DNA from: Parcubacteria bacterium C7867-004
Lineage (GTDB): Bacteria > Patescibacteriota > Minisyncoccia > Phycocordibacterales > Phycocordibacteraceae
DNA: 64,000 nt
Direction of reading: 5' to 3'
NCBI GenBank assembly: GCA_001189075.1
Contig: LFCN01000006.1
Coordinates: 169,384-233,383, forward strand
This document shows positions 15,629-41,066 of the stretch, piece after piece (within the stretch, counting starts at the first letter, position 1; each line of letters begins with the position of its first letter). The notes beneath the pieces are model-generated. The model had not been told where the DNA came from and did not search any database. It saw only the letters and a program-made list of their open reading frames with translations. Both the position numbers and the translations under genes were made by a program.

Positions 15629-15679
15629 GAAACCAAGGCATTTAAGACGCCGCAACAAATCACTTACTCTTATCATTCT

Positions 15680-16121: not shown

Positions 16122-16144
16122 TCTTTCTTCTCCTCAATACGACA

Positions 16145-16173: not shown

Positions 16174-16207
16174 CCACACATAACAGACCCAAGCTGTCGG
16201 GGTAGGG

Positions 16208-16213
16208 TAGAAT
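16208..16213 (+). promoter_or_regulatory. TAGAAT -10-like box upstream of pilin copy 3
   Basis: gggtagaatg lies 44 nt upstream of ATG 16257. Confidence 0.35.
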
Positions 16214-16256
16214 GTACGTACGGTACCCACATCCTCACTAATTTCCTTACTCACCT

Positions 16257-16766: not shown

Positions 16767-16834
16767 ATGAGATTGATTAGTGCTGCGGCAACTGGCTCTC
16801 CAAGGGGAGCCAGTTGCGCGTTATACTGGTACGA

Positions 16835-17596: not shown

Positions 17597-18258
17597 GATC
17601 TCTCAAAAGGCCGCAACGAGGCTTCACGCTCGTGGAGATGATCGTTGTTCTAATTATCATCACCACCATAACCAGCATCGTGCTCCTGGGTCAGAACACC
17701 TTCAATCGCTCTCTGGTGCTCACCGATACAGCCTACACGCTCGCATTCTCCATTCGTGAAGCGCAGTCGCGCGGGCTTTCGAGCAAGCTGTTCGGTTCAA
17801 TACAGAATGTGGGTTATGGCATACATCTGACTTCAGCAACACCGAAGTCCTACATCGTGTTCGCCGACATATCCCCATCCTCGCCGAGCACGCTCGGCGG
17901 GCTCTGTCCGAACCACACCGTTTCGTCAGGACCGGAAGCTAAGCGCGGGAACTGCGTCTATACGGATTCGGGAGAGGTTTTAAAAACCTACACCCTTGAA
18001 AAGGGTTTCAATATAAGTAATTTCTGCGGGCTCGAGCCGAGCAACGTCAATCGATGCTCCGGGTACCTGAGCGCACTTGATGTATCCTTCACGCGCCCTA
18101 ACACGCAAGCGACCATAATCGGTATCACGTCAGGATCGTCGTATATCGAGCTGACCACCGCGGCAATTACCCTTACGTCTCCGGACGGCACGAGCCATCG
18201 CTGCATTGCGGTATCGAAGGTCGGCGTGGTGTCGGTAGCGACCGGAGCCTGCCCATGA
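17575..18258 (+). CDS. Minor (pseudo)pilin
   Basis: Prepilin motif KRPQRG|FTLVEMIVVLIIITTI. Overlaps the pilD end by 22 nt. Confidence 0.65.
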   Translation: MELPLFLRSLKRPQRGFTLVEMIVVLIIITTITSIVLLGQNTFNRSLVLTDTAYTLAFSIREAQSRGLSSKLFGSIQNVGYGIHLTSATPKSYIVFADISPSSPSTLGGLCPNHTVSSGPEAKRGNCVYTDSGEVLKTYTLEKGFNISNFCGLEPSNVNRCSGYLSALDVSFTRPNTQATIIGITSGSSYIELTTAAITLTSPDGTSHRCIAVSKVGVVSVATGACP

Positions 18259-18788
18259 GTATGAACCGCAACCATCAAGGCTATACGCTTCTTGAACTCA
18301 TCGTCTCGGTAGGTATCTTCAGCATGGTGATGCTTATCGTTACGGGCGCGTACCTTGCCCTCATTAGCCTCGACCGGAAGGCGCGGGCCGTGAACGATCT
18401 CTCCTCAAACTTCTCTTTCGCTCTCGATGGCATGACCCGTTCGATACGCACCGGCAAGAACTTTGCGTGCGTGGGCGGGGGAGACGGCACGTGCTCGCAG
18501 ATGTCGTTTCGGGATCCGGACAATAATACGGTGACGTATCTGCTGAAGACGAGCGGCAGTATCGGCCAGTGCACGTCCGGAGTGTGCTCTGATACGTCGG
18601 CGGTAGCGCTTACCGATCCGAGGATACGCATCGATGCGCTCACGTTCTATATACGCGGCTCATCTATTTCGGATGAAGTGCAGCCGCAGGTGATCATCAC
18701 CATCCGCGGGAATATCCTCACCGAAGTGGGTAAGCAGACCAATTTCGCGGTCCAGGCTGCGGCGACCCAGCGCCTTATCGACATATGA
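18255..18788 (+). CDS. Minor (pseudo)pilin
   Basis: NHQG|YTLLELIVSVGIFSMVMLIV prepilin N-terminus. Confidence 0.65.
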   Translation: MSMNRNHQGYTLLELIVSVGIFSMVMLIVTGAYLALISLDRKARAVNDLSSNFSFALDGMTRSIRTGKNFACVGGGDGTCSQMSFRDPDNNTVTYLLKTSGSIGQCTSGVCSDTSAVALTDPRIRIDALTFYIRGSSISDEVQPQVIITIRGNILTEVGKQTNFAVQAAATQRLIDI

Positions 18789-19354
18789 TCATGAATACCC
18801 CGAAAGGCTTTACGCTCGTGGAGACGCTCGTCGCGTTGTCCCTCATCACAATAGCGATGATCGGCCCGTTCCAGTCGGTTGAAAATGCGCTCGCAGCATC
18901 CTATGTCGCGCGTGATCAGATCATCGCAACGAACCTCGCGCAGGAGGGTATTGAGTACGTACGAAGCGTCCGTGATGCCAACTATCTCTATAAGCTCAAT
19001 CACACCACCACGACCCGTACCTGGCTCTATGGGCTTGATGGAACTGATGCTAGTGGAGGAGCGGGTGGCGGAGTGAACTGCATAAGTTCTGACGGCTGCG
19101 TCGTCGATCCGACTCAGAACACGATCGCTGCATGCCCTGCCGGCGTCTGTCCGCCGCTCAGGCTCTCGACCGTGACCTATGTCTATAACCAGTCATCGGT
19201 GACTCCGACCAATCCGGTCACCATATTCACGCGCAAGGTCGTGCTAACCTCGACTGCCGCACACGAGAAGAAGATAACAGTGACCGTGAACTGGATAACT
19301 CGAGGAAAGCCCTATAGCGTAACGGTATCGGAAAGCATCTATAATTGGCTATGA
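18785..19354 (+). CDS. Minor (pseudo)pilin
   Basis: NTPKG|FTLVETLVALSLITIAMIG prepilin N-terminus. Confidence 0.65.
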   Translation: MIMNTPKGFTLVETLVALSLITIAMIGPFQSVENALAASYVARDQIIATNLAQEGIEYVRSVRDANYLYKLNHTTTTRTWLYGLDGTDASGGAGGGVNCISSDGCVVDPTQNTIAACPAGVCPPLRLSTVTYVYNQSSVTPTNPVTIFTRKVVLTSTAAHEKKITVTVNWITRGKPYSVTVSESIYNWL

Positions 19355-20685
19355 TGAATGTCAAACGGAATCCTCGCGGCTTCGCGCTCCTGGTAGCGAT
19401 CATACTGACCTCGGTACTCCTCTCGGTAGGTCTCGCGCTTCTTGATATCGCTTACAAGCAGATCTTGCTCGCGACGACCGCGAAGCAATCGGAGCTCGCG
19501 TTCTATTCGTCCGATACGATCCTCGAGTGCGCACTCTACTGGGACCAACAGTTCAATGCATTCAGCTATGCAGCGCCTGCTGCTAGCATCACCTGCGGAG
19601 GGCAGGTGATCGTGCTTCTGTCGCCACCGAATACGAGCGTCGTCGATGGTAACGTGCGCACCACGACGCTCACGATTCCAACCGCGTCAGGCTCAAGCGG
19701 TACCGTTACTATTTTGAAAGGAAGCGGAGGGGGAACCACGGTCTATGCGACCGGCTATAACAGCGGGAATGCAAGCGACCCGAACCGAACCGAGCGCGGC
19801 CTGAAGGCGGTCTATGGCGATCTTATTGCCACACCGGTGGCTATTCCGCCTCCGCCCTCGACGAGTCGTATATTCACAATAAGTCCAGCGGTGGGAGGGA
19901 GGACGACATGGGATCTCGATGTCCATGGTCCGCTTACCCTAAGCACGGCAGGAACGTGGACCATAGTTCCAAGTTCCACGTTCAGCGCGAGTGTACGGGC
20001 GTGGGGCGCAGGTGGCGGTGGCGGTAGCCCAGGCAGGTTTGATGATACGGGTGAATACCCGTATGGCGGCGGCGGTGGATTCACCTCAGGGACAGTGAGT
20101 ATGCCTTCCGGAGGTTCAATTTCTGTTCTGGTAGGTGGAGGAGGAAGTGGCACTGGTGTTGGGGGAAGCGGCGGAGGCGGAAACGCGAACGCGTTTACGC
20201 AGCATGGCGGAGGTGGCGGTCGTTCTGCGATAACGGTAGCTGCGGTGACCCAGATCGTAGCAGGAGGAGGCGGCGGCGGCGGGTATGATTACAGCGGCGG
20301 AGCGGGAGGTGGTCTCGCAGGACAGAGGTATTCTGCGCCGGGTAGCGGTTTCGGCGGTACCCAGACTGCAGGAGGCGCAGGACCAGGAAACCCAGGAAGC
20401 CTAGGGACGGGCGGTAACGGCATAAATTACACTGGTGGAGGAGGCGGCGGGTATTACGGAGGCGGCAGCGGTAGCTCTCCTTCATATTCGGCGGGTGGTG
20501 GTGGTGGTTCCGGCTACTACGGTGGCACTCTCGTGACCGGAGGCGCAACGACGGCCGGTAGTGGTCAGACTCCGGCAGGAACGACGGATCCCCGATACGG
20601 CAGTTCAGCTGGGCGAGGAGGTGATCCCGGTGGTGGTTTTGGAGACGGAGGAAGCGGAAATCCCGGTCGTATCGTCATCTACTAA
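19345..20685 (+). CDS. PilX-like minor pilin fused to a roughly 250-aa poly-glycine domain
   Basis: RNPRG|FALLVAIILTSVLLSVGLALL N-terminus. The C-terminal half is dominated by GGGGG(S/Y/T) runs (…GGGGGGGYDYSGGAGGG…). Confidence 0.6.
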   Translation: MAMMNVKRNPRGFALLVAIILTSVLLSVGLALLDIAYKQILLATTAKQSELAFYSSDTILECALYWDQQFNAFSYAAPAASITCGGQVIVLLSPPNTSVVDGNVRTTTLTIPTASGSSGTVTILKGSGGGTTVYATGYNSGNASDPNRTERGLKAVYGDLIATPVAIPPPPSTSRIFTISPAVGGRTTWDLDVHGPLTLSTAGTWTIVPSSTFSASVRAWGAGGGGGSPGRFDDTGEYPYGGGGGFTSGTVSMPSGGSISVLVGGGGSGTGVGGSGGGGNANAFTQHGGGGGRSAITVAAVTQIVAGGGGGGGYDYSGGAGGGLAGQRYSAPGSGFGGTQTAGGAGPGNPGSLGTGGNGINYTGGGGGGYYGGGSGSSPSYSAGGGGGSGYYGGTLVTGGATTAGSGQTPAGTTDPRYGSSAGRGGDPGGGFGDGGSGNPGRIVIY

Positions 20686-27020: not shown

Positions 27021-29858
27021 ATGGCTGTTACCAACAATCTGAAGCCGCAAGTAGACCTCCCTGTCTGGGAGTGGTGCCGCTTTACGCCTACCGCAACTGT
27101 CGCCCTTTCAGGGATGGCCACAGCCGATGATGGTAGCGCTCGCTTTATCTATTACATCTCCGCTTCCTCGTTCTATCGATATGACACGTACGCCGATGCG
27201 TGGCAGCAGCTCGCGACTCCGAACACTGCTCCATTCGCGGCACTCTCGCTTAGGTATACCGGATTCCGTGGATACCACGGAAGGGTACTGAGTGCGGGCG
27301 CAACCAGCGTGCAGATCGGTGGACTCCGTGGAGCAACGCTCAACGGGAAGACCATAAAGATACTTAGTGGTCCAGGAATAGGCCAGGAGCGCGTACTCAC
27401 GTTCACTGGAGAGACCATCCACGATATGGGTGTGATCACGGCGACGACGACGCTCACGCTTGCTGATTCCACGAAGAAGTGGAAGTTCAATCAGTGGTCG
27501 GGATACGTCGTCGGTATCACGTTCGGCACGGACGCGACCCAATACAAGAAGATCCTCTATAACGATGCAACCACGCTGTATATCAGTGACGCGAACCTCC
27601 AGCCCCACGATCCCTGGAATAACCAGCCGTTCGCTGCGATAGCGCCGTATGCGCTCCCGGTCACGACCGCCGGTTCGCAAGCGCACTTCCAGATTATTTC
27701 CCAGACGTATTCGGTTGATGCGTGGACTGTACAGCCCGACTACCGTTCGAATTACACTACCAATACCGGCGGCGTATACCTATTCTCCGGCTCTAACTCC
27801 GCACCCTTTTTCACGCTCCAGTACTACGACATCATTCATGACTCGTGGCAGACCAAGACCTGTAACCAGGCACTGCTCGCCGCGACGCTCAGTACCGACT
27901 GTACGTTCGAGCGCATGGCCAAGACCGGTACCGCATTCCTCTCCTCCACGGCGACCGCAGGCGCGGCCCGTACGCTCACCGACTCCGTACAGACGATGAC
28001 CGTCGATCGGTATGCGAACTATCGCGTGCTCATAACGGGAGGAACTGGCATCGGCCAGAGCCGCAGGATCATCTGCAACACTGCGACCGTTTTCACGGTG
28101 AACAAGGCGTGGGACACGAATCCGGACGCCACTTCGACCTATGAGATATGGGGAGACTATGACAAGGCGTTCTTCTCCGGTCATGCTGGAGCAGCGATGC
28201 TTCAGTATTCACCTTCAAACGATTTCTGGATGCAGGGTGCCAGCTTCGATGACGGTGTGGTCGCGAACATCGGCGTGAAGATGAGCGGATGGGAAGCACT
28301 CGGTGTGACTACCGGCGCAAGGATCGCCGCGGGCGTGACAGCAGTGAATGCGACCCCGACTGCGGGAGGTACGGGATATTTGGTGGGTGACATCCTGACG
28401 TGTTCGGTGGGCGGTACGGCAGCCCGCGTCATCGTTACAGCCATAGCGCCGACTGGCATCGTGAGTACTATCGAGCTCGTCGCGGCGGGTACCGGCACGG
28501 GCTTTACGACCGGCACCGGTAAGGCGACGACTGGCGGCACCGGCTCCGGCTGCACCATCGAGATAACCTCAGTCGGCGCTACGTGTCTTGTCACTACCGC
28601 TTCCGCAAACTGGTTCAAGACCGGAGACTCAGTAACATTCTCCGGATGTTCTGACAGCGCCTATAACGTCGCACACACCATTCTCGGCGCGGGTTCCACT
28701 ACAACCTTTGATGTCGCGACCTCAGCGGCAGGTTCCATGGCCGCTTCGAACTCGCAGTCGACCACCGTAATCGTCGATGCGTCGAAGAGCTGGACCACGA
28801 ATGAGCATGTCGGAAAGCTCGTACATCTCTCGGTCGCAGGCACTGCTCCTACTGCGCAGATCCGATGGATAACCGCCAATACCGCGACCACACTTACAGT
28901 CGCGACCATAGTCGCGGGAGTGAACGGTACCTCGAAGTACGCTATCTATGATTCGAAAGTGTTCGGTACGGATAATCAGTTCAAGCCCGCCAACCAGCAG
29001 AACTGGGGTCATGCGTCCGGCGGCTCGACCACGACGCTCATCGACGCATCGAAGAGCTGGGTTGTGAATGCCTGGGCAGGGTACAAGCTCCGTATAGAAT
29101 CAGGAACAGGTTTTGCAACCGGCATAATCTCTATCACCTCGAACACAGCGACGACGCTCACCTATACCACCCAGGGATTCACGCCGGACGCGACGACACA
29201 CTACGAGATTGCCGACAGCTGGGGACTCATGACGGCGGCATCGACCACCACCGTAACCGAGACCACGACCAAGAACTGGACAACGAACATGTGGGCAGGA
29301 AAGAGGATTCGCATCACGGGCGGTACCTCGCCGGGGCAGGAGGTAGCGATAACATCGAACACCGCAACCGTCATAACGATGGCAACGGTAACGCTCCCTG
29401 ATACCACCTCTACCTATGCGATACTCGGTGCTCCAGCACGCGGTGCGGGTACTCAGCTTATATGGATATGGGGGAATTCAGACGCAACAACGAAAGGGAG
29501 GTTGATGCTTTCGCCACGAGGCGGCGCTTCGAACACGTTCGATCTCTATGACATACCGACCGCACGGTGGGTGTACGGCTATTTCATATCTCCCCAAGCC
29601 GAGACGTTCACGACAGGATCCATGTATGCGTATGACGGGGAGAATACCGTGTATCTCCAGAAAGACGCGACCGGAAGGGTGTTCGCGTACAATGTATCGA
29701 CCAATGCGGTCAGTGCGCTCGGTACGATCCCGTACGGTCATTCGACCGCTATCATCGGGAACCGAATGGAGATAGTCGAGACCACGGATGGTCTCAAGTA
29801 CCTCTACATGATGCGTCATACGGGATCCGAGATGTGGCGCATGCTCATCTTCTTTTAA
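27021..29858 (+). CDS. 945-aa repeat protein with five copies of a roughly 45-aa module
   Basis: Recurrent (T/L)(A/I/V)D(A/S)(S/T)K(K/S)W(T/K)(T/V)N…W(A/S)G…(I/L)…G(T/G)(G/A)…GQ…I…SNTATT(L/V)T(V/Y) blocks at about aa 145, 310, 600, 675 and 755. No signal peptide. Confidence 0.55.
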   Translation: MAVTNNLKPQVDLPVWEWCRFTPTATVALSGMATADDGSARFIYYISASSFYRYDTYADAWQQLATPNTAPFAALSLRYTGFRGYHGRVLSAGATSVQIGGLRGATLNGKTIKILSGPGIGQERVLTFTGETIHDMGVITATTTLTLADSTKKWKFNQWSGYVVGITFGTDATQYKKILYNDATTLYISDANLQPHDPWNNQPFAAIAPYALPVTTAGSQAHFQIISQTYSVDAWTVQPDYRSNYTTNTGGVYLFSGSNSAPFFTLQYYDIIHDSWQTKTCNQALLAATLSTDCTFERMAKTGTAFLSSTATAGAARTLTDSVQTMTVDRYANYRVLITGGTGIGQSRRIICNTATVFTVNKAWDTNPDATSTYEIWGDYDKAFFSGHAGAAMLQYSPSNDFWMQGASFDDGVVANIGVKMSGWEALGVTTGARIAAGVTAVNATPTAGGTGYLVGDILTCSVGGTAARVIVTAIAPTGIVSTIELVAAGTGTGFTTGTGKATTGGTGSGCTIEITSVGATCLVTTASANWFKTGDSVTFSGCSDSAYNVAHTILGAGSTTTFDVATSAAGSMAASNSQSTTVIVDASKSWTTNEHVGKLVHLSVAGTAPTAQIRWITANTATTLTVATIVAGVNGTSKYAIYDSKVFGTDNQFKPANQQNWGHASGGSTTTLIDASKSWVVNAWAGYKLRIESGTGFATGIISITSNTATTLTYTTQGFTPDATTHYEIADSWGLMTAASTTTVTETTTKNWTTNMWAGKRIRITGGTSPGQEVAITSNTATVITMATVTLPDTTSTYAILGAPARGAGTQLIWIWGNSDATTKGRLMLSPRGGASNTFDLYDIPTARWVYGYFISPQAETFTTGSMYAYDGENTVYLQKDATGRVFAYNVSTNAVSALGTIPYGHSTAIIGNRMEIVETTDGLKYLYMMRHTGSEMWRMLIFF

Positions 29859-29860
29859 TT

Positions 29861-30721
29861 ATGAATATTGATTACCTCACGCAGCTGCTCACGAACCGCC
29901 TCGCAGCCCTCGCGCTCTCCAAAGATCAGGCGTTCCAATCGGGCGACCTTGAGCGCATCAACCTGCTTGATGTGGAGATGGCAGAAGTAGAGAACACCCT
30001 CTCCCAGCTGCGCCTGCTCTCCAATATCACCATCGCGGCGGCTGTCGCGAACACTACTCCTGCGCAGATAGTCTCGACGGGACTCGATGCCGTTCAGAAC
30101 ATTGTTCAGGGACCTTCGGCGGGTGCCGTTATCAACGGCTACGATATCTCCGCGTATGCGACCGATCCGCTCTACGAGCAGAAAGTGCAGGGTATTCTCG
30201 ACGCGATGCCGGCCTTCGTTACCGCCGAAGATATCGATACCTATGTGCAGGAAGCGGCTCCTGGAAGTCCGGTGACCGGCGCGATGATACTTGCCGCTGC
30301 TTCTGAGAACTTGGTCGACTCCCGCCTCATGATGGCGATCATGCGTAACGATTCGCAATTTGGTACGCAGGGCGTCGGCGCGAGGACCAATAACCCGGGT
30401 AACGTCGGAAATACGGGCACTTCAGAGCAGATGTATCCTTCCTGGGACGAAGGCGTGCGTGCGGGCGCCGAGTGGCTCAGCCGTCATCGCGCGGTAGCTC
30501 CCGTTGCACAAGAGATCGTCATCGAGCCGGTTCCCGAACCAGCACCTACTCCCGCGCCTAAAAAGACCCGGAAGCTCAATATCAAGGTAGAGGAGGATCC
30601 CCGCGTAGATCCCATACCTCCTGTCGAGACCCCTATAGACATCGTTCCGGTTGAAGAGGTGCCGCAAGCGACCACTACCCCGGCCCTTCCTGAAGACCCG
30701 GCGACCACCACCCCCTCGTAG
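29861..30721 (+). CDS. Hypothetical protein with a Pro-rich C-terminal tail
   Basis: Start moved to ATG 29861, immediately after the upstream stop. Internal RTNNPGNVGNTG…YPSWDEGVRAGAEWL segment and a C-terminal PEPAPTPAP…PVEEVP low-complexity tail. Confidence 0.45.
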   Translation: MNIDYLTQLLTNRLAALALSKDQAFQSGDLERINLLDVEMAEVENTLSQLRLLSNITIAAAVANTTPAQIVSTGLDAVQNIVQGPSAGAVINGYDISAYATDPLYEQKVQGILDAMPAFVTAEDIDTYVQEAAPGSPVTGAMILAAASENLVDSRLMMAIMRNDSQFGTQGVGARTNNPGNVGNTGTSEQMYPSWDEGVRAGAEWLSRHRAVAPVAQEIVIEPVPEPAPTPAPKKTRKLNIKVEEDPRVDPIPPVETPIDIVPVEEVPQATTTPALPEDPATTTPS

Positions 30722-30743: not shown

Positions 30744-31475
30744 ATGGAGGAGATCGAGGTCTACATCGCTAAGTACGGGCATTACCTGGAGGAGATACGG
30801 AAGCGGATTTACCGCATCGTTATTGTCTATATCGTCGCGTTCCTCGCGGGACTCTTCTCGACGAATCTGTTCGTGCGCTTCTTCATAACGTATCTCAATG
30901 TCGATAACGTGACGATCGTCGCGACTTCGCCGTTTCAGCTGCTTGATCTGGCAATGAGTATCGGGTTCTTCCTTGCGACCATAGTAACCATCCCGTTCGC
31001 CATCCAACAGATCTATTCGTTCCTCAGTGGGGGACTGCTGCCGCACGAGCGAAGGATATTCTTCACACTTATCCCGCTCTCGGTGCTGCTGTTCCTCGTC
31101 GGTTTCACCTACGGGTTCGGGGTCATGTACTACGCGGTAGAGGTCATTGCGCAAGTGAACGTGAGCTTCGGGATAACTAACCTCTGGAACGTCAGCCATT
31201 TCATATCCCAGATGCTGATCACGGCGGCCCTGCTCGGCATGATATTCGAGTTCCCAATCATGCTCACGCTCCTCATACGCATCGGCCTCTTCCCGGTGTC
31301 CTTTTTACGCCGTAAAAGGCGCATTGCTATGGCCGCGATCTTCGTTTTTGTTGCTTTACTTCCCCCAACCGACGGGCTATCCTTTATGATAATGTCCTTG
31401 CCGCTCGTGGGGATATATGAGCTCACTATCGTGCTCAATTCCTTCTACAAGCGGAAAGAACCCTTAGAAACATAA
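30744..31475 (+). CDS. tatC: Twin-arginine translocase subunit TatC
   Basis: HLEEIRKRIYRIVIVYIVAF N-terminal signature with six TM helices. Confidence 0.85.
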   Translation: MEEIEVYIAKYGHYLEEIRKRIYRIVIVYIVAFLAGLFSTNLFVRFFITYLNVDNVTIVATSPFQLLDLAMSIGFFLATIVTIPFAIQQIYSFLSGGLLPHERRIFFTLIPLSVLLFLVGFTYGFGVMYYAVEVIAQVNVSFGITNLWNVSHFISQMLITAALLGMIFEFPIMLTLLIRIGLFPVSFLRRKRRIAMAAIFVFVALLPPTDGLSFMIMSLPLVGIYELTIVLNSFYKRKEPLET

Positions 31476-31487: not shown

Positions 31488-31655
31488 ATGTTCGGACTCG
31501 GATCAAATGAACTGATAATCATCGCAGTCATACTCGTGCTCCTCTTTGGTGCGACCCGCATCCCGGCGCTCACTAAGGGCATCGCGCAGGCAATTCGCGA
31601 GCTTCGCGGCGCGTTCAAGGACGAAGAGTTCAGCGACGAGAAGAAAAAGTCTTAG
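31488..31655 (+). CDS. tatA: Twin-arginine translocase subunit TatA/E
   Basis: MFGLGSNELIIIAVILVLLFGATRIP… followed by an amphipathic helix. 55 aa, below the ORF-track length cutoff. Confidence 0.7.
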   Translation: MFGLGSNELIIIAVILVLLFGATRIPALTKGIAQAIRELRGAFKDEEFSDEKKKS

Positions 31656-31789
31656 TCTCTCCTCCGAGGGACGGATTTTTGTATGAGATATCCGCCAGGA
31701 ATGGCGGGTATAGAGCGCTTCATGAACGTGCGATGATGCTAGAATCATATAGGTAGCGGCTTTCAGTAGGGAAGTGGTGGCGACGGTGC

Positions 31790-34700
31790 ATGAACCTATA
31801 TTTTTCGCATACAAAAACGAGCCGCTCTGCCGCACTATCGGTATTCTTCCCTGTGCTCTTCGCGGCGCTCATGGTTCCCGTCGGCGTCTTTGCCGACTAT
31901 CAGGAATACCTGCCGGGTACGGCAGTGAATATAGGGGAGTTCGTGTATGACGATGATTTCCAGGCGACCACCACGGCCAACTGCATCGTCACGGTCTATG
32001 ACCCGACGGGGGCGGTAGCGGTGAATGCGGCTGCGATGACGGCGACGGCCAACAGCTGGTATTCCTATTCGTTCACGCCGGACTCGATCGAAGGCACCTG
32101 GCCTTCAGAAATGTCCTGTGGTTCAGCGCTTTCAGGCGATCTCGTAAAAGGGGACAAGACATTCGTCGTAACGTCGAATATCGTCTCTTCTTCATCAGTA
32201 GCGGCCCTCGTGAATGCGAACACGAACACGGTAGTGGCATCCGCCAGCTCCTCGCTTGCGTCCACGCTTCCGGCGTCGATATGGAGCTACTCGGGGCGCA
32301 CGCTCACCTCGTTCGGTACGTTAGTTGCCGATATCTGGGCGAACGGCACGCGATCGCTCACCTCGGGCGTCGCTATTGCGAATGATATCTGGGCTGCAAC
32401 GACGCGCACTCTTACCGGAGCCGGACTCGACTCAGGCTCACTCGCCACGCAGTCTGACGTAACGACTGCTTCCTCATCTCTTGGAAGCGCCATAACGACT
32501 GAGACTGCGGCAGTTAATGCCAATACCAACGCAACGGTCGCAACCGCCTCAAGCTCGATTGCCGCAGTCGTAAACGCGAACACAAACACGCAGGTCCTCA
32601 CTGCTTCCACGTCACTCGGCTCGACGCTTGCTTCCATCGGCTCGAGCATAACGAATATCCCGACGGCGGTCTGGGCAGCAGGTACTCGTACACTCACGGG
32701 CTTTGGAACACTCGCGTCTGACGTATGGGTAAATGGAACACGCACCCTTACCGGAGCCGGGCTCGACTCGGGATCACTCGCAACGCAGTCTGACGTAACG
32801 ACCGCCTCTTCATCGCTCGGAAGCGCGATTGCGGCTGAGACATTGGCGGTCAACACCAACACAAATACGCAAGTCTTAACTGCTTCCACATCGCTTGGTT
32901 CAACCCTCACTTCGATTACCGGCTCGATTGCAGGTATACCTGCTGCTGTCTGGGCCGCGGGCACTCGCAGTCTAACGACATTCGGCACGCTCGCCTCTGA
33001 CGTATGGGCAAGCGGCACGAGGACGCTCACGGGCGCAGGGCTCTCGTCCGGCTCGCTCGCTACTCAGACTGACGTGACGACTGCTTCCTCGTCGCTCGGG
33101 AGCGCTATTACCGCCGAAACCGCCGCAGTTAACGCGAACACTAATGCAACCGTCCTTGCTGCGAGTACGTCACTTGCATCCAATATCAATGCAAACACGA
33201 ATCTTCAAGTCTTAACCGCTTCAACATCTCTAGGTTCAACCCTCACCTCAATTGCAGGTTCCATCACCGGTATTCCGGCGGCAGTCTGGGCCGCGGGATC
33301 TCGTACTCTCACCGGCTTCGGCACACTCGCATCTGATGTATGGTCTGTCGGTACCCGTACTCTTACTGGCGCAGGACTTTCGTCCGGTTCGCTTGCAACG
33401 CTTAGCGACGTAACAACCGCGTCTTCATCGCTCGGCTCTGCTATCACGGTTGAAACCGCTGCCGTGAATGCGAATACGAACTCTGCTATCGGTACGGCAA
33501 GTTCTTCGCTGGCCGCGGTTATTAACGCGAACACAAACACGCAGGTCCTCACGGCCTCCACCTCGCTCGGCTCAACACTCGCTTCGATCGGCTCCAGCAT
33601 AACGAATATTCCAACTGCGGTATGGGCGGCAGGAACTCGAAGCCTCACGACCTTTGGCACACTCGCATCTGATGTCTGGTCTGTCGGTACACGCACGCTC
33701 ACCGGCGCAGGTCTCTCCTCCGGCTCGCTCGCTACTCAGACTGACGTGACAACCGCGTCTTCCTCACTCGGAAGCGCTATTACGGCTGGCACCGTTGCGG
33801 TTAATGCGAACACGAATGCAACGGTTGCCAATGCATCAAGCTCGATCGCGGCTGTAGTGAACGCGAACACCAACACGCAGGTCCTCACCGCTTCATCCTC
33901 GCTCGGCGCATCCATAGCGGCTGTTCCACTCTCCGTCTGGAACGTCGCATCCTCTTCGCTCAATGTCGCCGGATCGATTGGAAAGCAACTCGCGCTTAAT
34001 GTTGACGCGGCGATTTCGAGTGTCACGGGAGGTGTCGGATCTCTCACTGCTGCCGACGTATGGTCATACGCGACGCGCACACTCACCGGAGCCGGCCTCG
34101 ACTCGGGATCACTCGCGACGCAGTCTGATGTAACCACCGCGTCCTCTTCGATCGCCGCCGTTGTTAACGGCAACACGAATACGCAGGTCGCAGCCGGAAC
34201 CGCGAGCGTGAACGGAACGATCGGAACCGCCTCGAGCTCGATTGCGGCTGTAGTGAACGCGAACACCAACACGCAGGTCCTCACCGCTTCTACCTCGATT
34301 GGCTCGACACTCTCTTCGATCGGTTCGAGCATAACGAATATCCCGACCGCGGTATGGGCAGCGGGCACCCGTACTCTCACCGGCTTCGGCACACTCGCAT
34401 CTGATGTATGGTCTGTCGGTACCCGCACCCTTACTGGCGCAGGACTATCAAGCGGTTCGCTCGCTACGCTTAGCGACGTAACGACCGCTTCGTCTTCGCT
34501 TGGAAGTGCTATTACGGCTGGAACCGCGAGCGTGAACGCGAACACGAATGCAACGGTGCTTACTGCGTCTTCTTCACTCGCAACGGTGATCAATGCGAAC
34601 ACCAACACGCAGGTTCTGACTGCTTCAACCTCTATCGGTTCGACCCTCACCTCGATTACCGGCTCAATCGCCGGTATTCCAGCGGCAGTCTGGGCCGCGG

Positions 34701-36031
34701 GATCTCGTACCCTCACGGGCTTTGGAACCCTCGCGTCTGACGTGTGGGCGAGCGGTACCAGGACGCTCACGGGAGCTGGTCTCTCCAGTGGCTCGCTCGC
34801 TACGCTTAGCGACGTAACAACCGCCTCTTCATCCGTTGCCGCTTCCGTGAATGCGAATACCAACACGCAGGTTGCCGCAGGGACCGCGAGCGTGAACAGC
34901 AATACCAACGCGGTCGTGCTCGCCGCCTCGACATCGGTCGCGGCATCGGTGAACGCGAATACCAATACCGTCATCACTACCGCGTCTAGCTCGCTCGCCG
35001 CTTCTATAGCCGCGATTCCTACCAACGTATGGGCTGCCGGTACGCGCAGTCTGACGACCTTTGGAACGCTCGCGACCGATGTCTGGAGTGCAGCGACGCG
35101 TACCCTCACGTCGCTTACGCTCTCATCCTCGTCGCCGTGGACCGTGACGATGTCCGACTTCGGCACTATCTCCGCGGGAGACAACTATCTCGCAACGGTG
35201 AACACGCTCTATAACGGAACGCTCACGGATTCGGCGAACCTGCCGACCATCACGGTCTACGATCCGAGCCGCAACGTTATAGTTTCTTCAGCCGCGATGA
35301 CGCGCACAGGAGTCGGTAGCTATACCTACTCCTACACGACGAGCGTGAGCGCCGAGGGCGGCGTATGGGAGAGCGCCATCTCAGCGACGGTTGAGACCGG
35401 AAAGACTCTTCCGGGCAACGACTACTGGAACGTCACGACCTCACCGCCGCAGGTCTTCATAAACAGCGTGACCTCGACCGTCGTGCCGAACATCACTGCG
35501 AGCGTCCGCGTTACGAACGAGGGTGACGTCGCCTACGAGTACCCTTACGAGTGGTGCGTCGTTGCTGATATCAGCAACTCCTGCGGCGGGGGAGACGATA
35601 CGTACTACGCATCGGCTGCGAAGCTGATCGCACCCGGAGAGAACTTCGATACAGTGCTGACCGCGACCGTGCCGGTAACTGGGGTCTACTACTTTAAGGT
35701 TGCCGTCTACTACGGCACCGAAGTCTCGCGTGCATCCCGCCTCTTTACCGCGACCGCAGCGGGAACCCCTGGTACCGGTGGGGGAGGTGGTGGAGGAGGA
35801 GGTGGCGGAGGTGGCGGAGGCGATGATCCGGCTCCGGCAGCAGGCTCCTGCGAGGATCGCGTGCGCGCGGACATCAACTGCGATGGCCGAGTGAACGGCG
35901 TCGACTTCTCGATGCTGCTCGCATTCTGGAAGACCTCTGCTCCGTACCGAAATCCGCGCGTCGACCTCAACCGGGACGCGAAGGTGGATTCCGTCGACTT
36001 CTCGATACTCCTCTATAGCTGGACCCGATAA
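31790..36031 (+). CDS. Giant secreted tandem-repeat surface protein with a C-terminal dockerin-like module
   Basis: Signal peptide MNLYF…VPVGVFADYQ. About ten repeats of 94-112 aa. A (Gly)17 linker. C-terminal DINCDGRVNGVDFSMLLAFWKT and DLNRDAKVDSVDFSILLYSWTR duplicated Ca-loop/helix segments, as in type-I dockerins. Confidence 0.7.
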   Translation: MNLYFSHTKTSRSAALSVFFPVLFAALMVPVGVFADYQEYLPGTAVNIGEFVYDDDFQATTTANCIVTVYDPTGAVAVNAAAMTATANSWYSYSFTPDSIEGTWPSEMSCGSALSGDLVKGDKTFVVTSNIVSSSSVAALVNANTNTVVASASSSLASTLPASIWSYSGRTLTSFGTLVADIWANGTRSLTSGVAIANDIWAATTRTLTGAGLDSGSLATQSDVTTASSSLGSAITTETAAVNANTNATVATASSSIAAVVNANTNTQVLTASTSLGSTLASIGSSITNIPTAVWAAGTRTLTGFGTLASDVWVNGTRTLTGAGLDSGSLATQSDVTTASSSLGSAIAAETLAVNTNTNTQVLTASTSLGSTLTSITGSIAGIPAAVWAAGTRSLTTFGTLASDVWASGTRTLTGAGLSSGSLATQTDVTTASSSLGSAITAETAAVNANTNATVLAASTSLASNINANTNLQVLTASTSLGSTLTSIAGSITGIPAAVWAAGSRTLTGFGTLASDVWSVGTRTLTGAGLSSGSLATLSDVTTASSSLGSAITVETAAVNANTNSAIGTASSSLAAVINANTNTQVLTASTSLGSTLASIGSSITNIPTAVWAAGTRSLTTFGTLASDVWSVGTRTLTGAGLSSGSLATQTDVTTASSSLGSAITAGTVAVNANTNATVANASSSIAAVVNANTNTQVLTASSSLGASIAAVPLSVWNVASSSLNVAGSIGKQLALNVDAAISSVTGGVGSLTAADVWSYATRTLTGAGLDSGSLATQSDVTTASSSIAAVVNGNTNTQVAAGTASVNGTIGTASSSIAAVVNANTNTQVLTASTSIGSTLSSIGSSITNIPTAVWAAGTRTLTGFGTLASDVWSVGTRTLTGAGLSSGSLATLSDVTTASSSLGSAITAGTASVNANTNATVLTASSSLATVINANTNTQVLTASTSIGSTLTSITGSIAGIPAAVWAAGSRTLTGFGTLASDVWASGTRTLTGAGLSSGSLATLSDVTTASSSVAASVNANTNTQVAAGTASVNSNTNAVVLAASTSVAASVNANTNTVITTASSSLAASIAAIPTNVWAAGTRSLTTFGTLATDVWSAATRTLTSLTLSSSSPWTVTMSDFGTISAGDNYLATVNTLYNGTLTDSANLPTITVYDPSRNVIVSSAAMTRTGVGSYTYSYTTSVSAEGGVWESAISATVETGKTLPGNDYWNVTTSPPQVFINSVTSTVVPNITASVRVTNEGDVAYEYPYEWCVVADISNSCGGGDDTYYASAAKLIAPGENFDTVLTATVPVTGVYYFKVAVYYGTEVSRASRLFTATAAGTPGTGGGGGGGGGGGGGGGDDPAPAAGSCEDRVRADINCDGRVNGVDFSMLLAFWKTSAPYRNPRVDLNRDAKVDSVDFSILLYSWTR
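32400..35110 (+). repeat. In-frame tandem DNA repeats (282-336 bp units, about 10 copies, highly similar)
   Basis: Recurring blocks such as gcgaacac(c/a)aacacgcaggtcctcac…tctgacgt(a/g)ac(a/g)ac(c/t)gc. The encoded unit is TASSSLGSAI…AVNANTNTQVLTASTSLGSTL…IPAAVWAAGTRTLTGFGTLASDVW…GTRTLTGAGLSSGSLATQSDVT. Confidence 0.7.
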
Positions 36032-36033
36032 TC

Positions 36034-36891
36034 ATGAACACTATGACCCTCCGCGTACTCATCGTTCTCCTCGCTCTCTCGGTTCTCCCGCAGGGGGTCG
36101 GGGCCGCGGCATTCCTCGTGACTCCTGACGCGGCAACCGTTGGTCAGGAATTCGCGGCGACCATGAGCTTCGCTCCCCAGGGCGAGGCTGTGAATGCAGT
36201 CGAGGGGTCGCTCAAAATACCGGAGGGACTCAGCGTCGTTCGCGTAAGCACGGGAGGCTCAGCACTCGCGCTCTGGCCTGTGTCGCCTGCGTTCTCGCTC
36301 TCGGACCGGACGGTTACGTTCGTCGGAGGAAGTCCTGGCGCGGGACTGCCTGCCGATAGCTCCTCGCTTCTTTTCACGCTCTATCTCAAGGCAGCCGCAC
36401 CGGGAACGTATTCGATCGAGTCTTCCGCAGTGTCCGGTTTCAAAGCTGACGGCACCGGCGACCGTGTCGCTGTTGCCGTCGAGCCCGTCTCGGTCATCGT
36501 TGGTTCGGAAGCGGTCAAATCGACGGCGAAAGCTGATCACGCTGCACCGAACTCGCTCACCGTCGCACTCGGAAGCGATACATCGCTCTTCGATGGTGCG
36601 CCGTTCGTCTCCTTCTTCGCGAGCGACGCGGGAAGCGGCATAGCCGCGTATCAAGCGAAGGAAGGATGGTTCGGCGCGTATAAGCCGGTAGATCGGTACT
36701 ACGTCCTGGCTGACGCAAGTGCCAAGCAGCCGGTATGGATACGCGCGATAGACGCGGAGGGCAACAAGCGTACGGTGCACGTGAAGGGAACCGGTGACAC
36801 GCTCTACTACGCCGGTCTCCTAGCTCTTCCGGTCCTGCTGCTTTTGCTCATCATCGCGTTTCTGGTTTACCGTTTCCGCCCGCGACCATAA
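36034..36891 (+). CDS. Membrane-anchored cohesin-like domain protein 1
   Basis: Signal peptide, then …FLVTPDAATVGQEFAATMSFAPQGEAVNAVEGSLKIPEGLSVVRVSTGGS…, a cohesin-like pattern. C-terminal TM anchor LLALPVLLLLLIIAFLVY. Confidence 0.5.
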   Translation: MNTMTLRVLIVLLALSVLPQGVGAAAFLVTPDAATVGQEFAATMSFAPQGEAVNAVEGSLKIPEGLSVVRVSTGGSALALWPVSPAFSLSDRTVTFVGGSPGAGLPADSSSLLFTLYLKAAAPGTYSIESSAVSGFKADGTGDRVAVAVEPVSVIVGSEAVKSTAKADHAAPNSLTVALGSDTSLFDGAPFVSFFASDAGSGIAAYQAKEGWFGAYKPVDRYYVLADASAKQPVWIRAIDAEGNKRTVHVKGTGDTLYYAGLLALPVLLLLLIIAFLVYRFRPRP

Positions 36892-38336
36892 TGAAAAGAT
36901 TCCTCATCTTCTTGCTCCTCGCTCTGTCGCTTCCCGCGACCTCGCATGCGGCAACGATGAGCCTCATTCCGTCCGATACTACGGTTGATACCGGGGATAT
37001 CGTCACGGTCCGTGTAGTGGTTAATCCGGGGGGCACGGCGGTGAACAATGCCGAAGCGGTAGTGAGGTTCCCGGCGGGTGTTCTCGAGGTTCTTTCTGTA
37101 AGCAAAGCTGGCTCGATGTTCCCGCTCTGGGTAGAGGATCCGAGCTTCTCGAACGGGGCGGGGACGGTGTCTTTTAACGGAGGCGTTCCGAACCCGGGCG
37201 TCTCGAGCGCGGGCACGGCGCTCTCGATAAGCTTTCATGCGGTTCGAGCAGGTACCGCGTCCTTGTCGCTTTCGGAAGCGGCAGTACGTGCGAACGACGG
37301 TCTCGGTACCGATGTCCTCACCGGCTCCTCAGGAACGCAGATCACGATCTTATCCGCTTCAGCGCCCGTTACTCCCACTACACCTGTACCGACTGCACCT
37401 GCTACTGGTACGGGAGCTGCGCCGGTGAGCGCAGGACCGATAGCGATCTCTTCGCCGACACACCCCGACTCGAATATCTGGTACGCAAATACCACCCCGT
37501 CCTTCACCTGGTCACTGCCGAAGGGGGCAACCGGCGTATCGCTCGGCATCGATCAATCGCCAGCAGCGGCACCTGGTGTCACCTACACCACCGCGATAAC
37601 CGAGAAGACCGTTGCATCGCTTGAAGACGGCACCTGGTACTTCCGCATGAAGTATCGCTCGGGAGGAGCCTGGAGCACGATAAGCTCCTACAAGGTTCAG
37701 ATTGATTCCAGTTTGCCTGAGATAACAAATCACACGGTCCTCTATGACGAGACAGAGCGCGCAGTTCTAATTGAGGTAGCGGGAACCGATTCAGGATCGG
37801 GCATTGAGCGGTACGATGTCTCGATAGACGGCGCTGAGCCGATCTCGGTCCCAGCGAGCAAGTTTGATGGAAAGTCGCAGTCTTTCCCGGTTCGCTCCTC
37901 CGGCATCCATAAAGTGACCATAACCGCGATAGATCACGCCGGGAACCGGGTGAGCGTCGAGAACTCCTTCTCGGTATCGCAATCGCTGAGCAATCAGCCG
38001 CTGTTCTTCATCGGCTCATTCGGCGTGAGTCTCCTGGCGGTGCTTCTTGCCATGAGTCTCTTCTCGATGATCTCGCTCATCGCGGCGCTCTTCGCCTGGT
38101 TCACGCTCATCTACTACCGCCATCGGAAGCATCCGACCGTTCCGGCGGTGCGTAAGGACATGCACGAGGGCTTCCTTAAGATTAAGTCGAATATGGAGAT
38201 AGATATCCGGGCGCTTGATAGGGCACGCATGAAGCGCGAGCTCTCGCGGGAGGAGGCGATGCTCTACCGCAGGCTAGTTGCCAACGTGTCTGCCCTCGAG
38301 CGTCATATGGACAGGATACTGGATGATATGGATTAG
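36891..38336 (+). CDS. Membrane-anchored cohesin-like domain protein 2 with Ig-like middle region and cytoplasmic tail
   Basis: Signal peptide. SLIPSDTTVDTGDIVTVRVVVNPGGTAVNNAEAVVRFPAGVLEVLSVSKAGSMFPLWVEDPSF…GTASLSL follows the cohesin beta-sandwich pattern. TM at about aa 375-400, then a charged cytoplasmic tail. Confidence 0.55.
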   Translation: MKRFLIFLLLALSLPATSHAATMSLIPSDTTVDTGDIVTVRVVVNPGGTAVNNAEAVVRFPAGVLEVLSVSKAGSMFPLWVEDPSFSNGAGTVSFNGGVPNPGVSSAGTALSISFHAVRAGTASLSLSEAAVRANDGLGTDVLTGSSGTQITILSASAPVTPTTPVPTAPATGTGAAPVSAGPIAISSPTHPDSNIWYANTTPSFTWSLPKGATGVSLGIDQSPAAAPGVTYTTAITEKTVASLEDGTWYFRMKYRSGGAWSTISSYKVQIDSSLPEITNHTVLYDETERAVLIEVAGTDSGSGIERYDVSIDGAEPISVPASKFDGKSQSFPVRSSGIHKVTITAIDHAGNRVSVENSFSVSQSLSNQPLFFIGSFGVSLLAVLLAMSLFSMISLIAALFAWFTLIYYRHRKHPTVPAVRKDMHEGFLKIKSNMEIDIRALDRARMKRELSREEAMLYRRLVANVSALERHMDRILDDMD

Positions 38337-38359: not shown

Positions 38360-40342
38360 TTATTTGGCCACTCGGATTTTGATAGTTATTGTTGTGCCAG
38401 AATTTTGACCACACTCAGCAAATATAATTCCGTTGTGCAACTCTACAATTCGTTTGACTATTGCAAGTCCAATACCGGTTCCAGGAATATTCCGAGAAGC
38501 ATGATCTCCTCGATAAAATCTATCAAAGATGTAAGGTAAGTCAGTTGGGGCAATTCCTATCCCGCTGTCTATAATCGATAAAACTACAAAATCTGACTCG
38601 GTTCTCAATGAGAAGCCAATCTGTTTCGGCCCCTCTTCATTCATGTACTTCAGAGAATTGCTGGCAATATTAGTTATTGCCTCACGCATTCGTTTCCGGT
38701 CGCCATAAATATATATACCCGACTCAATCGCAAGGCCTACTTCTATTCCTCTGTTACCCGCGATGACCGTTATCTCCTCCGCAACTTCATGTGTAAGTTC
38801 TGAGAGGTTAAATAAATCGTTTACTTGATTTGCCTCGCTCTCTACTTGAGAAAGTGATAAGAGATCATAAATAAAAATCGAAAAGTTCTTCAACGATTGC
38901 TCGAAGGAACAAATGGTGCTATCTGTTCGAAGCCTAGAATCCATTCGGTCAAGTTTTGTCTGAAGTATCGCCAGTGGAGTCTGCAGATTGTGGGATAGAT
39001 CAGTAATTATTTGATGCTCCCTGATTCGTGATTCTTTGAGTTCTTGAGTTCTTTCTTCAACCTTTTGCTCTAATTCCGCTGCATGTTTTTCAACATCCAT
39101 AAAAAGTTGAACGCGAGAGAGACATGTTGCTGCCTGGTTTGTAAATGTAAGTAAAAGCTGTAAATCGCGTTTTTCATATGGATCACCCGATAATTTATTT
39201 CCAACGAATATACGACCGATGGTTTGTCCATCAGAGTTAATTGGCGCTGACATAGTTCCAACTGAGTCACTGTCCAGTTGTTCAACATCATTTTTGCAAC
39301 TGGATTCGCGAGTAAGTAGGACTCTGACGGATTGAGAATGAAATATTAGTGCAAGTTTTAATTCCACCTTATCAATAAATTCTTCAAATGTTCTAGCCGT
39401 GTAAAGAACCTCACTGAGTGAGTGCATTGCCTCCGCATAATCGTACGTGTCTTTAAAGAAAATCTTATCTGTGAGCTTTCGGAAACTTTTTTCGATTACA
39501 GGAATGCTGAAAGCACTGACCACTACAGCAATGCATGACGCAAAAAGTATGTTTATGTCTGATGAGTAAGTGACAAAGGTCTCTAGAACTACTATTATTG
39601 TGATATAAAATCCCACCACTAGGGTTATAAGTAGACTATAGGTTATTCCATTTCGAACCGCATTTTTAATGTCAAGTAACTGATGACGGGTGGTTGCGTA
39701 AACACAGCCCATTGCAAAAAAGATTGTACAAAGTGGGCCCAGTGAGTAGAACCTATACTCTCCAGTAAGAGGCAAGGCCACTGTAAATAATAGTGTGCCT
39801 GCTCCTGAGAGAATAAGTCCTGAAAGGGCATACCATAGTTGCATTCTTCTCGTATAGCCAGTTTTGTTTGCCAGCGCGTAAGCGAGACGCGCAATTCCAT
39901 AAAGTAAATTACTTAAGGAATATATAAAAACATAAGTATAAATTACACCAGGAACTATTTCTGCTGGACGCACGATTGGGAAAGACATCTCCAGTATTGC
40001 GTGTGGTGAGAATGACGCTGCAGCAAGGGCTATCCCTGGAAGCGCGTATAATAAGAATCTACGCCAAGGTGGAAAACGACCGTCAATAAGTAAGTCAGTG
40101 AGTACAAATTGCACTATAACTTTAAGCATGGCGACCATAAGTGCCAGGCTGCAGCTAATGTATAGGCAACTTGTTGTATAGCAGACATCTGCAATTACAT
40201 TACTTCCAATCCATATCGTCACCAGGACCAAGTAAGTTCCAAGAGTTACTTCAAGCGCCGATCGTCTTCGTATAAATAGAATTATGGATGCAACAGCGAA
40301 TATGACTGAGACGAATGCTGCTGCATAGGTTATTTCAAACAT
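38360..40342 (-). CDS. Sensor histidine kinase with a large polytopic membrane sensor domain
   Basis: About nine N-terminal TM helices. H-box ITDLSHNLQTPLAILQ. HATPase_c N/G boxes (…NSLKYM…IIDSGIGI…GTGIGLAIVKRIVELH…). Lies in a markedly AT-rich segment. Confidence 0.8.
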   Translation of the reverse strand: MFEITYAAAFVSVIFAVASIILFIRRRSALEVTLGTYLVLVTIWIGSNVIADVCYTTSCLYISCSLALMVAMLKVIVQFVLTDLLIDGRFPPWRRFLLYALPGIALAAASFSPHAILEMSFPIVRPAEIVPGVIYTYVFIYSLSNLLYGIARLAYALANKTGYTRRMQLWYALSGLILSGAGTLLFTVALPLTGEYRFYSLGPLCTIFFAMGCVYATTRHQLLDIKNAVRNGITYSLLITLVVGFYITIIVVLETFVTYSSDINILFASCIAVVVSAFSIPVIEKSFRKLTDKIFFKDTYDYAEAMHSLSEVLYTARTFEEFIDKVELKLALIFHSQSVRVLLTRESSCKNDVEQLDSDSVGTMSAPINSDGQTIGRIFVGNKLSGDPYEKRDLQLLLTFTNQAATCLSRVQLFMDVEKHAAELEQKVEERTQELKESRIREHQIITDLSHNLQTPLAILQTKLDRMDSRLRTDSTICSFEQSLKNFSIFIYDLLSLSQVESEANQVNDLFNLSELTHEVAEEITVIAGNRGIEVGLAIESGIYIYGDRKRMREAITNIASNSLKYMNEEGPKQIGFSLRTESDFVVLSIIDSGIGIAPTDLPYIFDRFYRGDHASRNIPGTGIGLAIVKRIVELHNGIIFAECGQNSGTTITIKIRVAK

Positions 40343-40397: not shown

Positions 40398-41066
40398 CTA
40401 TACTCCCATTCGATAGCCTCTTCCTGGCACAGTCTGTATCAAACGATCTTTACTCATGTCATCAAGTTTTTTTCGTAACGAGAGGATATGGGATTCAATT
40501 GTATTTGAGAAAATATCAACACTCATGTCCCATACGTGCTCAAGTATCATTCCACGAGAAAGTACAATACCCTCATTACGCATTAGGTACTGTAAAAGCA
40601 TAAATTCCTTTCGTGTAAGATAGACACGTTTATCGCCTTTACGTACGCTCCCGCTCCTGGCATCCAAGAAAATGTCGTCAACGATTAACTCGTCTTCCTC
40701 TAACCCAGCAGGCCGACGAAGCAATGCGCGAACTCGTGCAAGTAGTTCCTCAAGGATAAAAGGTTTTGTTAAGTAATCATCGGCGCCTGCATTAAGTAAT
40801 GTGACCTTGTCATTTATGCCCGTTTTTACTGAAACCACTAATATTGGTAAATTTTTTCCTACGGCTCGTATATCCTTACAGACTTGGATACCTTCTTTTT
40901 TAGGTAATAGATTGTCTAAAATAATAAGGTCGTAGTCATTTGTGCGAGCGAGGTATGATCCGATCTCTCCATCTACTGCGACATCGACTGCAAAAAATTC
41001 TGCAATTAAAGCTTCTTTAAGGAAGCATGCAATCTTAGGTTCGTCTTCTACTACTAGTATTCTCAT
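40398..41066 (-). CDS. OmpR/PhoB-family response regulator
   Basis: Receiver MRILVVEDEP…LIILD…K and a C-terminal winged-helix (…GRGYRMG). Upstream of, and probably co-transcribed with, the kinase. Confidence 0.85.
   Translation of the reverse strand: MRILVVEDEPKIACFLKEALIAEFFAVDVAVDGEIGSYLARTNDYDLIILDNLLPKKEGIQVCKDIRAVGKNLPILVVSVKTGINDKVTLLNAGADDYLTKPFILEELLARVRALLRRPAGLEEDELIVDDIFLDARSGSVRKGDKRVYLTRKEFMLLQYLMRNEGIVLSRGMILEHVWDMSVDIFSNTIESHILSLRKKLDDMSKDRLIQTVPGRGYRMGV

Follow-up and report, generated by a model that had tools for sequence, protein, structure and literature searches.

Analysis of a 64,000-nucleotide stretch of the genome of Parcubacteria bacterium C7867-004 (NCBI GenBank assembly GCA_001189075.1, contig LFCN01000006.1, positions 169,384 to 233,383 of the forward strand; hereafter the window) revealed a cassette of three adjacent genes, which probably specifies a non-cellulosomal, membrane-anchored cohesin-dockerin tether for a non-catalytic surface fibre. 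The first gene encodes a secreted repeat protein with a C-terminal dockerin module (the fibre protein, 1413 residues), and the two genes downstream of it encode membrane proteins with N-terminal cohesin domains, one of 285 residues (the short anchor) and one of 481 residues (the long anchor). Non-cellulosomal cohesin-dockerin pairs and surface-anchoring cohesins are well known. Parcubacteria and other Candidate Phyla Radiation (CPR) organisms are believed to live in attachment to other cells, and the molecules from which they build their surfaces are largely unknown. The cassette is very widespread and looks like the standard means by which the relatives of this organism tether a surface fibre.

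The preliminary description of this locus, which was drawn from the sequence alone, had pointed to two 22-residue segments of the type-I dockerin pattern at the C-terminus of the fibre protein. Both are present verbatim (residues 1361-1382 and 1392-1413, with 11 of 22 positions identical between them), and a profile search supports their assignment, in that the Pfam profile Dockerin_1 (PF00404) matches residues 1360-1407 with 28.8 bits, above its curated cut-off of 22.9. The calcium-binding loop pattern D.[ND].[DN][GA].[VI][ND]..D occurs at only these two sites in all six frames of the window. An AlphaFold model of residues 1100-1413 of the fibre protein, built on a 46-sequence alignment (predicted local distance difference test, pLDDT, of 87.5), places the dockerin helices at 1370-1378 and 1401-1409 with a pLDDT of 90-95. 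The same Pfam profile scores above its cut-off in all five diverse orthologues scanned, and among the 120 matches listed for the C-terminal region nearly every one has it as a precomputed annotation. Comparison of 71 distinct relatives showed that the module (consensus AD.N.D.KVNSVDFSI.LAFWKT..PF.N..VD.N.D..V.SVDFSILLY.WGK) is preceded by a Gly-rich linker and always lies within about 10 residues of the C-terminus, with its two loop-and-helix segments strongly and nearly equally conserved, inclusive of the Asp/Asn positions of the loops. With a mean pairwise difference of 0.355 the dockerin is the most conserved module, against 0.50 for the cohesin domain of the long anchor and 0.66-0.69 for the other parts.

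The long anchor is 100% identical to AB199_01275, a hypothetical protein of Parcubacteria bacterium C7867-004 that is encoded on a contig of 685,965 bp. Sequence searches of solved structures with either anchor or with the family profile of the long anchor found no cohesin, and the family profile of the short anchor marginally matched the R. flavefaciens cohesins 5aoz (E 0.0016) and 5m2o (E 0.0044). Given that sequence-only searches were uninformative, a comparison of folds was needed. In an AlphaFold model of the long anchor (41-sequence alignment, pLDDT 84.7) the N-terminal domain is predicted to be a nine-stranded flattened β-sandwich of the jelly-roll type, which is superimposable on solved cohesins. 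Its matches include cohesins solved together with dockerins (1ohz, 2vn5, 4dh2, 6kgc) as well as cohesins from outside cellulosomes, namely 2vo8 and 2w1n of C. perfringens and 2xdh of A. fulgidus. Foldseek agrees. The Pfam Cohesin profile is matched by 18 of the 41 long-anchor homologues (best E 4e-7) and by 5 of the 51 members of the short-anchor family (best E 2.7e-11). To judge from sequence comparison the short anchor is a shorter paralogue of the long one, as BLASTP aligns the two across their N-terminal 126 residues (E 6e-11), and hhalign of the two family profiles spans the cohesin and the last immunoglobulin-like (Ig-like) domain (E 1.7e-43).

The signal peptides and C-terminal transmembrane (TM) segments attributed to both anchors at the outset were recovered by hydropathy and in the AlphaFold model. 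By hydropathy, all 70 short-anchor homologues possess a C-terminal TM helix with at most 14 residues beyond it, and all 83 long-anchor homologues possess a TM helix that in most is followed by a tail of about 72 residues. Basic residues follow both TM helices of the window proteins (YRFRPRP and YYRHRKHP), which fits an orientation with the cohesins outside the cell and the tails inside. Pfam gave no SLH match on the anchors, which end in a plain TM helix, and no search aimed at LPXTG motifs was made. NCBIfam gave no match for the fibre protein, the short anchor or the upstream neighbors, and on the long anchor only the model of an OmpL47-type β-barrel domain, with 33 bits against a cut-off of 40. 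One homologue (P0092, 575 residues) bears the JGI name 'Sec-independent protein translocase protein TatA'; its sequence has no TatA part and is that of an ordinary long anchor, and hence the name was probably carried over from the neighboring gene.

The association of the three genes was studied by scanning one genome per species, which furnished 79 loci (L007-L085) in which open reading frames (ORFs) were called and searched with the modules from the window; the sources named are Parcubacteria, Paceibacterota and metagenome-assembled genomes of Nomura-, Adler-, Niyogi-, Falkow-, Wolfe-, Doudna- and Wildermuthbacteria. The dockerin gene, the short cohesin gene and the long cohesin gene follow each other on one strand in 69 of these 79 loci, and in 69 of the 74 informative ones, five of the ten exceptions being cut by a contig end. 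The synteny of dockerin and cohesin genes, for which the preliminary description had proposed a check in related genomes, is thus indeed seen, and none of the outcomes that it had named as refuting arose. Exactly two cohesin ORFs are present in 74 of 86 loci, and there is never more than one dockerin ORF per locus. The cargo ahead of the dockerin differs completely between species. In the window it features the Thr/Ser/Ala-rich repeats; elsewhere it is an array of FN3 (7-13) or MG2 (7-9) domains, and among orthologues its length lies anywhere between 247 and more than 3300 residues. Accordingly, the label of a giant adhesin suits the 1413-residue protein found here, but great size is not a constant of its orthologues. 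Scans of the window fibre and of five diverse orthologues detected no catalytic domain, but only MG2, FN3 and dockerin domains. At E <= 1e-30 the profile of the long anchor recovered 3953 cluster representatives (clustering at 50% identity), some of which are giant proteins whose match is confined to repeated Ig-like domains. The short and the long anchor are repeatedly found fused (766-901 residues), and most of these fusions keep a hairpin of TM helix and signal sequence in the middle, such that both cohesins would stay outside in most of them. Such fusions were observed at L050 (1085-3541), L051 (6790-9387) and L083 (1002-3707) and in the proteins P0040, P0252, P0260, P0264, P0275, P0279, P0298, P0317 and P0322; the L083 version lacks an internal hydrophobic segment and would therefore expose a tandem pair of cohesins on the outside.

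The fibre protein itself is secreted, as originally proposed, with the signal peptide as its sole hydrophobic segment (residues 11-37 by hydropathy), and scans with Pfam, PHROGs and NCBIfam detected no enzyme domain in it. Its N-terminal domain matches the Pfam MG2 profile at residues 33-104 with 26.7 bits, under the cut-off of 32.8; the motif GEFVYDDDFxATTT of this domain is kept in 34 loci, and PF01835 is present on many homologues. The stalk consists to 53% of Thr, Ser and Ala and has a period of 112 residues with sub-repeats of 18-19 residues, typified by 14 copies of the motif W..G[TS]R[TS]LT and eight of GAGL[DS]SGSLAT. This repeat has no match in Pfam, NCBIfam or PHROGs, and its 336-nucleotide equivalent is invisible at the DNA level, where Tandem Repeats Finder caught only the poly-Gly codons. 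A sequence scan recovered 18 [IVL]xxNTxx motifs in the stalk, and in its hydropathy the highest signal between 3.3 and 4.0 residues, a peak at 3.7, exceeds that of all 200 shuffled versions, with further peaks at 3.3 and 2.15 making for a mixed signal. A resemblance to trimeric coiled coils with asparagine at heptad position d may be discerned here, which we treat as a lead only. The two C-terminal β-sandwiches of the model resemble generic Ig-like or macroglobulin modules, with Foldseek matches to RbmA, the MG domains of alpha-2-macroglobulin and S-layer Sap domains. The linker ahead of the dockerin had been given as 17 glycines, whereas the run counts 15. Antisense ORFs of 247, 165 and 482 codons lie on the minus strand within the fibre gene (window positions 32287-35184); rather than genes, these are most likely artefacts, free of stops owing to the repetitive, GC-rich coding strand.

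The coordinates and lengths first given for the three ORFs agree exactly with the ORF list (Table 1). The fibre gene ends in a TAA stop that is separated by a 2-nucleotide spacer from the ATG of the short anchor, and the short and long anchor genes meet in the sequence TAATG, with stop and start sharing one nucleotide, just as the overlap had been described.

These observations suggest the following mechanism. The fibre protein would be exported, in this organism probably by Sec, and the two anchors, with their translationally coupled genes, would each become a single-pass membrane protein which, upon cleavage of the signal peptide, displays its N-terminal cohesin outside the cell on one Ig-like spacer (short anchor) or two (long anchor). 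The dockerin, we infer, plugs into one or both of these cohesins, most likely in a Ca2+-dependent manner, so that the fibre would be held non-covalently at the cytoplasmic membrane with its conserved MG2-like N-terminal domain at the distal end. Observed here are the identities of the domains, the predicted topology, the gene order across many species and the absence of enzymes, whereas the binding, the choice of cohesin, the stoichiometry, the oligomeric state and the biological role are inferred. A function in attachment to a host is plausible in this lineage, and a structural layer of the envelope would fit the data equally well. A more elaborate arrangement might also be envisaged, in which the two cohesins clamp one dockerin, each taking one of its segments to form a 1:1:1 transmembrane anchor, the tail of the long anchor couples the fibre to the cell interior, and the cassette together with the linked TatAC forms a core lineage-specific organelle for holding hosts or surfaces; we consider this unlikely. 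The combination of a constant plug-and-socket part with a freely exchangeable stalk makes the cassette a concrete and testable candidate for tethering the main surface fibre of these bacteria, and extends cohesin-dockerin biology to a membrane-anchored, enzyme-free arrangement of two cohesins and one dockerin.

Several points weigh against such a pairing. The profile search advocated for the two downstream proteins succeeded for members of their families and through the paralogy noted above, but the cohesins of the window itself stay under the cut-off of Pfam PF00963, with 17.3 against 24.1 bits (E 0.0057) for the long anchor and no match at all for the short one, and all structures used are predictions. 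Five loci (L015, L021, L058, L065 and L085) possess a long anchor with no dockerin gene nearby, implying that the cohesin protein can exist without a dockerin partner, at least locally; about 20 kb around each locus was covered and dockerin proteins might be encoded elsewhere in these genomes. When distance matrices are compared, the dockerin correlates weakly with the cohesins (r of 0.44 for the short and 0.33 for the long anchor, as against 0.31 for an Ig control), and phylogeny confounds the comparison. Hence, it might be argued that the cohesin-fold domains have a different ligand (a glycan, for instance, or peptidoglycan or some other protein), that the dockerin is only a Ca-stabilized terminal module or binds an unlinked partner, and that the gene order reflects a shared function in the envelope instead of a plug-and-socket contact. 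Dockerin-only and cohesin-only proteins are reportedly common outside cellulosomes, as Peer et al. are said to have found in 2009 (FEMS Microbiol Lett). Yet, the prevailing ratio of one dockerin to two cohesins and the tight or overlapping gene junctions speak against this proposal, as does the retention of the dockerin as the most conserved module while the remaining cargo changes completely, which is expected if it must keep fitting a conserved partner. We therefore regard the absence of pairing as improbable. In four of the dockerin-less variants (L015 8633-11380, L021 4089-8743, L058 315-2912 and L065 5867-8482) one to three tandem tatA genes are followed by the long anchor, with neither dockerin nor short anchor; L015, L058 and L065 have a secreted protein of about 200 residues encoded between tatA and the anchor gene, and L021 has two long-anchor-like genes in tandem.

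The position of tatC-tatA directly upstream of the fibre gene, which the preliminary description had noted, was corroborated by Pfam TatC and TIGR01411 matches, and the linkage is real: of the non-redundant loci whose upstream sequence extends to 1.5 kb or more, 34 in number, 19-20 have tatC-tatA directly ahead of the dockerin gene (tatC in 20 of 34). This raises the prospect of a Tat-coupled device for export or assembly, in which the folded fibre would leave by way of TatC and TatA, and the cohesin proteins would serve at the translocon as transient receptors for assembly or chaperoning instead of as permanent anchors. Consistent with such a device, tatA is retained even in the dockerin-less variants, with two to three copies at some loci, and the five relatives with RR in the fibre signal peptide are all from Tat-linked loci. 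These are close relatives of the window fibre (L003, L005, L009, L020 and L054) and have RR or RRR in the n-region (e.g. MTLRRRNNSPFAL), at the place where the window has SRS; the window may have lost a Tat signal recently, or the difference may be fortuitous. However, the n-region of the window fibre, KTSRSAALSVFF (KTSRSAAL), contains a single Arg and no twin arginine, and RR occurs in none of 67 short anchors and in only 5 of 24 fibres and 3 of 82 long anchors. The fibre was accordingly rejected as a Tat substrate, its signal peptide lacking the S/T-R-R-x-F-L-K pattern and RR being confined to a minority of relatives. Furthermore, a gap of 135 nucleotides separates tatA from the fibre gene and includes a terminator-like hairpin (of a kind whose count is not above chance), and about 40% of the informative loci have no tat genes upstream. 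A role of the cassette as a Tat-coupled device thus appears quite doubtful. A miniature cellulosome, with the membrane cohesins gathering dockerin-tagged carbohydrate-active enzymes for the degradation of polymers, is more remote still, and is in our estimation very hard to credit: the modules belong to the same families as the cellulosomal ones and a protein with a glucosaminidase domain is encoded 1 kb upstream, but that protein has no dockerin, the sole dockerin of the window, as the single one of each locus, belongs to a protein in which (as in the five diverse orthologues) neither a catalytic nor a carbohydrate-binding domain was found, and each anchor has one cohesin, with no multi-cohesin scaffoldin and no match to a carbohydrate-binding module. 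An origin of the cassette from a phage was likewise not supported, given that PHROGs gave no match for the cassette or its upstream neighbors and NCBIfam only the sub-threshold match to the OmpL47-type domain.

The proposed membrane tether may be compared with several known systems. In contrast to the anchoring scaffoldins of cellulosomes (OlpA, OlpC and SdbA of C. thermocellum and ScaE of R. flavefaciens), its anchors end in a C-terminal TM segment, with no Pfam SLH match, carry one cohesin each, and have as partner a single non-catalytic fibre rather than an enzyme-loaded scaffoldin, all in a Parcubacterium with a small genome. The cohesins of A. fulgidus (2xdh) and of the GH84/GH33 toxin complexes of C. 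perfringens (2w1n, 2vo8 and 2o4e) are modules of soluble or secreted enzymes or of isolated proteins, whereas here the gene of one dockerin fibre adjoins those of two dedicated membrane cohesin proteins, a grouping that many species have kept. The fibre is reminiscent of giant repeat adhesins such as SiiE of Salmonella in its long non-enzymatic repeat stalk that would project a terminal domain, and fragments of SiiE and of a large adhesion protein are among the fold matches of the Ig-like parts. However, adhesins of the SiiE type leave the cell by type I secretion and are then held in a channel of the outer membrane, whereas the fibre has a signal peptide, no outer-membrane component is present, and retention by cohesin and dockerin is proposed; the stalk of the window is moreover a Thr/Ser/Ala-rich repeat without a Pfam family. 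In trimeric autotransporter adhesins, according to a passage of PMC13580157 that cites Hartmann et al. 2009, coiled-coil stalks bear asparagine at heptad position d. The [IVL]xxNTxx motifs and the periodicity near 3.3 and 3.7 might be read as a likeness to these stalks, one of sequence only and with a signal that is mixed by the extra peak at 2.15, and there is no autotransporter β-barrel anchor here. The cassette thus differs from known systems in its TM anchoring, in the two single-cohesin anchors per dockerin and in an enzyme-free, variable fibre as the sole local client; the conserved cytoplasmic tail on one anchor, the Tat neighborhood and the breadth across Parcubacteria are also distinctive.

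Full-text searches of the literature on dockerins or cohesins in Parcubacteria, Patescibacteria or the CPR brought up no account of the cassette. Some homologues already bear the NCBI name 'dockerin type I domain-containing protein', and the dockerin domain is annotated in databases. In a cultivated Saccharibacterium, a member of another CPR class, a dockerin-domain envelope protein has been reported to be essential (PMC10633639).

Table 1. Features of the cassette and of neighboring genes, in window positions and protein residues
Feature	Position	Strand	Residues	Remarks
Fibre gene	31790..36031	+	1413 aa	Secreted repeat protein with dockerin end; ORF list
Fibre signal peptide	31790..31894	+	1-35	...VGVFA|DYQ; Sec-type; hydropathy and comparison of orthologue N-termini
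MG2-like N-terminal β-sandwich	31895..32179	+	~36-130	Motif GEFVYDDDFxATTT
Repeat stalk	32180..35119	+	~130-1110	~8 copies of a ~112-aa unit (93-128 aa)
Two C-terminal β-sandwich domains	35123..35755	+	~1112-1216, ~1220-1322	AlphaFold model
Poly-glycine linker	35777..35821	+	1330-1344	15 consecutive Gly; predicted disordered, pLDDT <50
Dockerin module	35861..36028	+	~1358-1413	Ca-loop and helix segments 35870-35935, 35963-36028
Short anchor	36034..36891	+	285 aa	Signal peptide, cohesin, one Ig-like domain, C-terminal TM
Short-anchor cohesin	36106-36504	+	~25-157	
Short-anchor Ig-like domain			~170-250	
Short-anchor TM helix	36802-36870	+	~257-279	Followed by 6-aa tail; hydropathy
Long anchor	36891..38336	+	481 aa	Signal peptide aa 1-20 (modelled helix 2-12)
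Long-anchor cohesin β-sandwich	36951-37352	+	21-154	AlphaFold
Long-anchor Pro/Thr linker			158-178	Disordered in model
Long-anchor Ig-like domains (two)			185-271, 277-380	
Long-anchor TM helix	38031-38117	+	381-409 (as taken)	Modelled helix 381-412
Long-anchor cytoplasmic two-helix tail	38118-38333	+	to 481	72 aa; predicted
tatC	30744..31475	+	243 aa	Pfam TatC E 4.2e-38; TIGR00945 E 5.5e-32
tatA	31488..31655	+	55 aa	TIGR01411 tatAE E 2.2e-12
Terminator-like hairpin	31655-31672			3' of tatA; count of such sites not above chance
T2SSE-type ATPase	12738-13805			Type IV pilus cluster
T2SSF platform protein	13809-15017			Type IV pilus cluster
N-methyl pilin-like genes (four)	16257-16766, 17575-18258, 18255-18788, 18785-19354			
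Prepilin peptidase	16814-17596			
Protein with ALK/LTK-type glycine-rich domain	19345-20685		446 aa	

A second surface-appendage system, a type IV pilus cluster, lies about 11 kb upstream of the cassette (12738-20685). Upstream of tatC (27021-30721) are genes for a 945-residue Thr/Gly/Ala-rich protein with weak Kelch matches only and no obvious signal peptide, and for a protein of 295 residues in which a glucosaminidase domain scores 31.5 bits (cut-off 30.2). This pair also precedes the tat genes in L007, L005, L038 and L064, and on the strength of this gene order the cassette may belong to a conserved envelope neighborhood of larger extent. On the downstream side the G+C content drops from about 0.58 to 0.43 over a histidine kinase gene (38360-40342) and a response regulator gene (40398-41066), both on the minus strand and convergent to the cassette, and amounts to 0.39-0.44 at the end of the window (60000-64000). 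Close relatives likewise have, downstream of the cassette, a minus-strand gene for a HATPase_c protein of about 655-660 residues.

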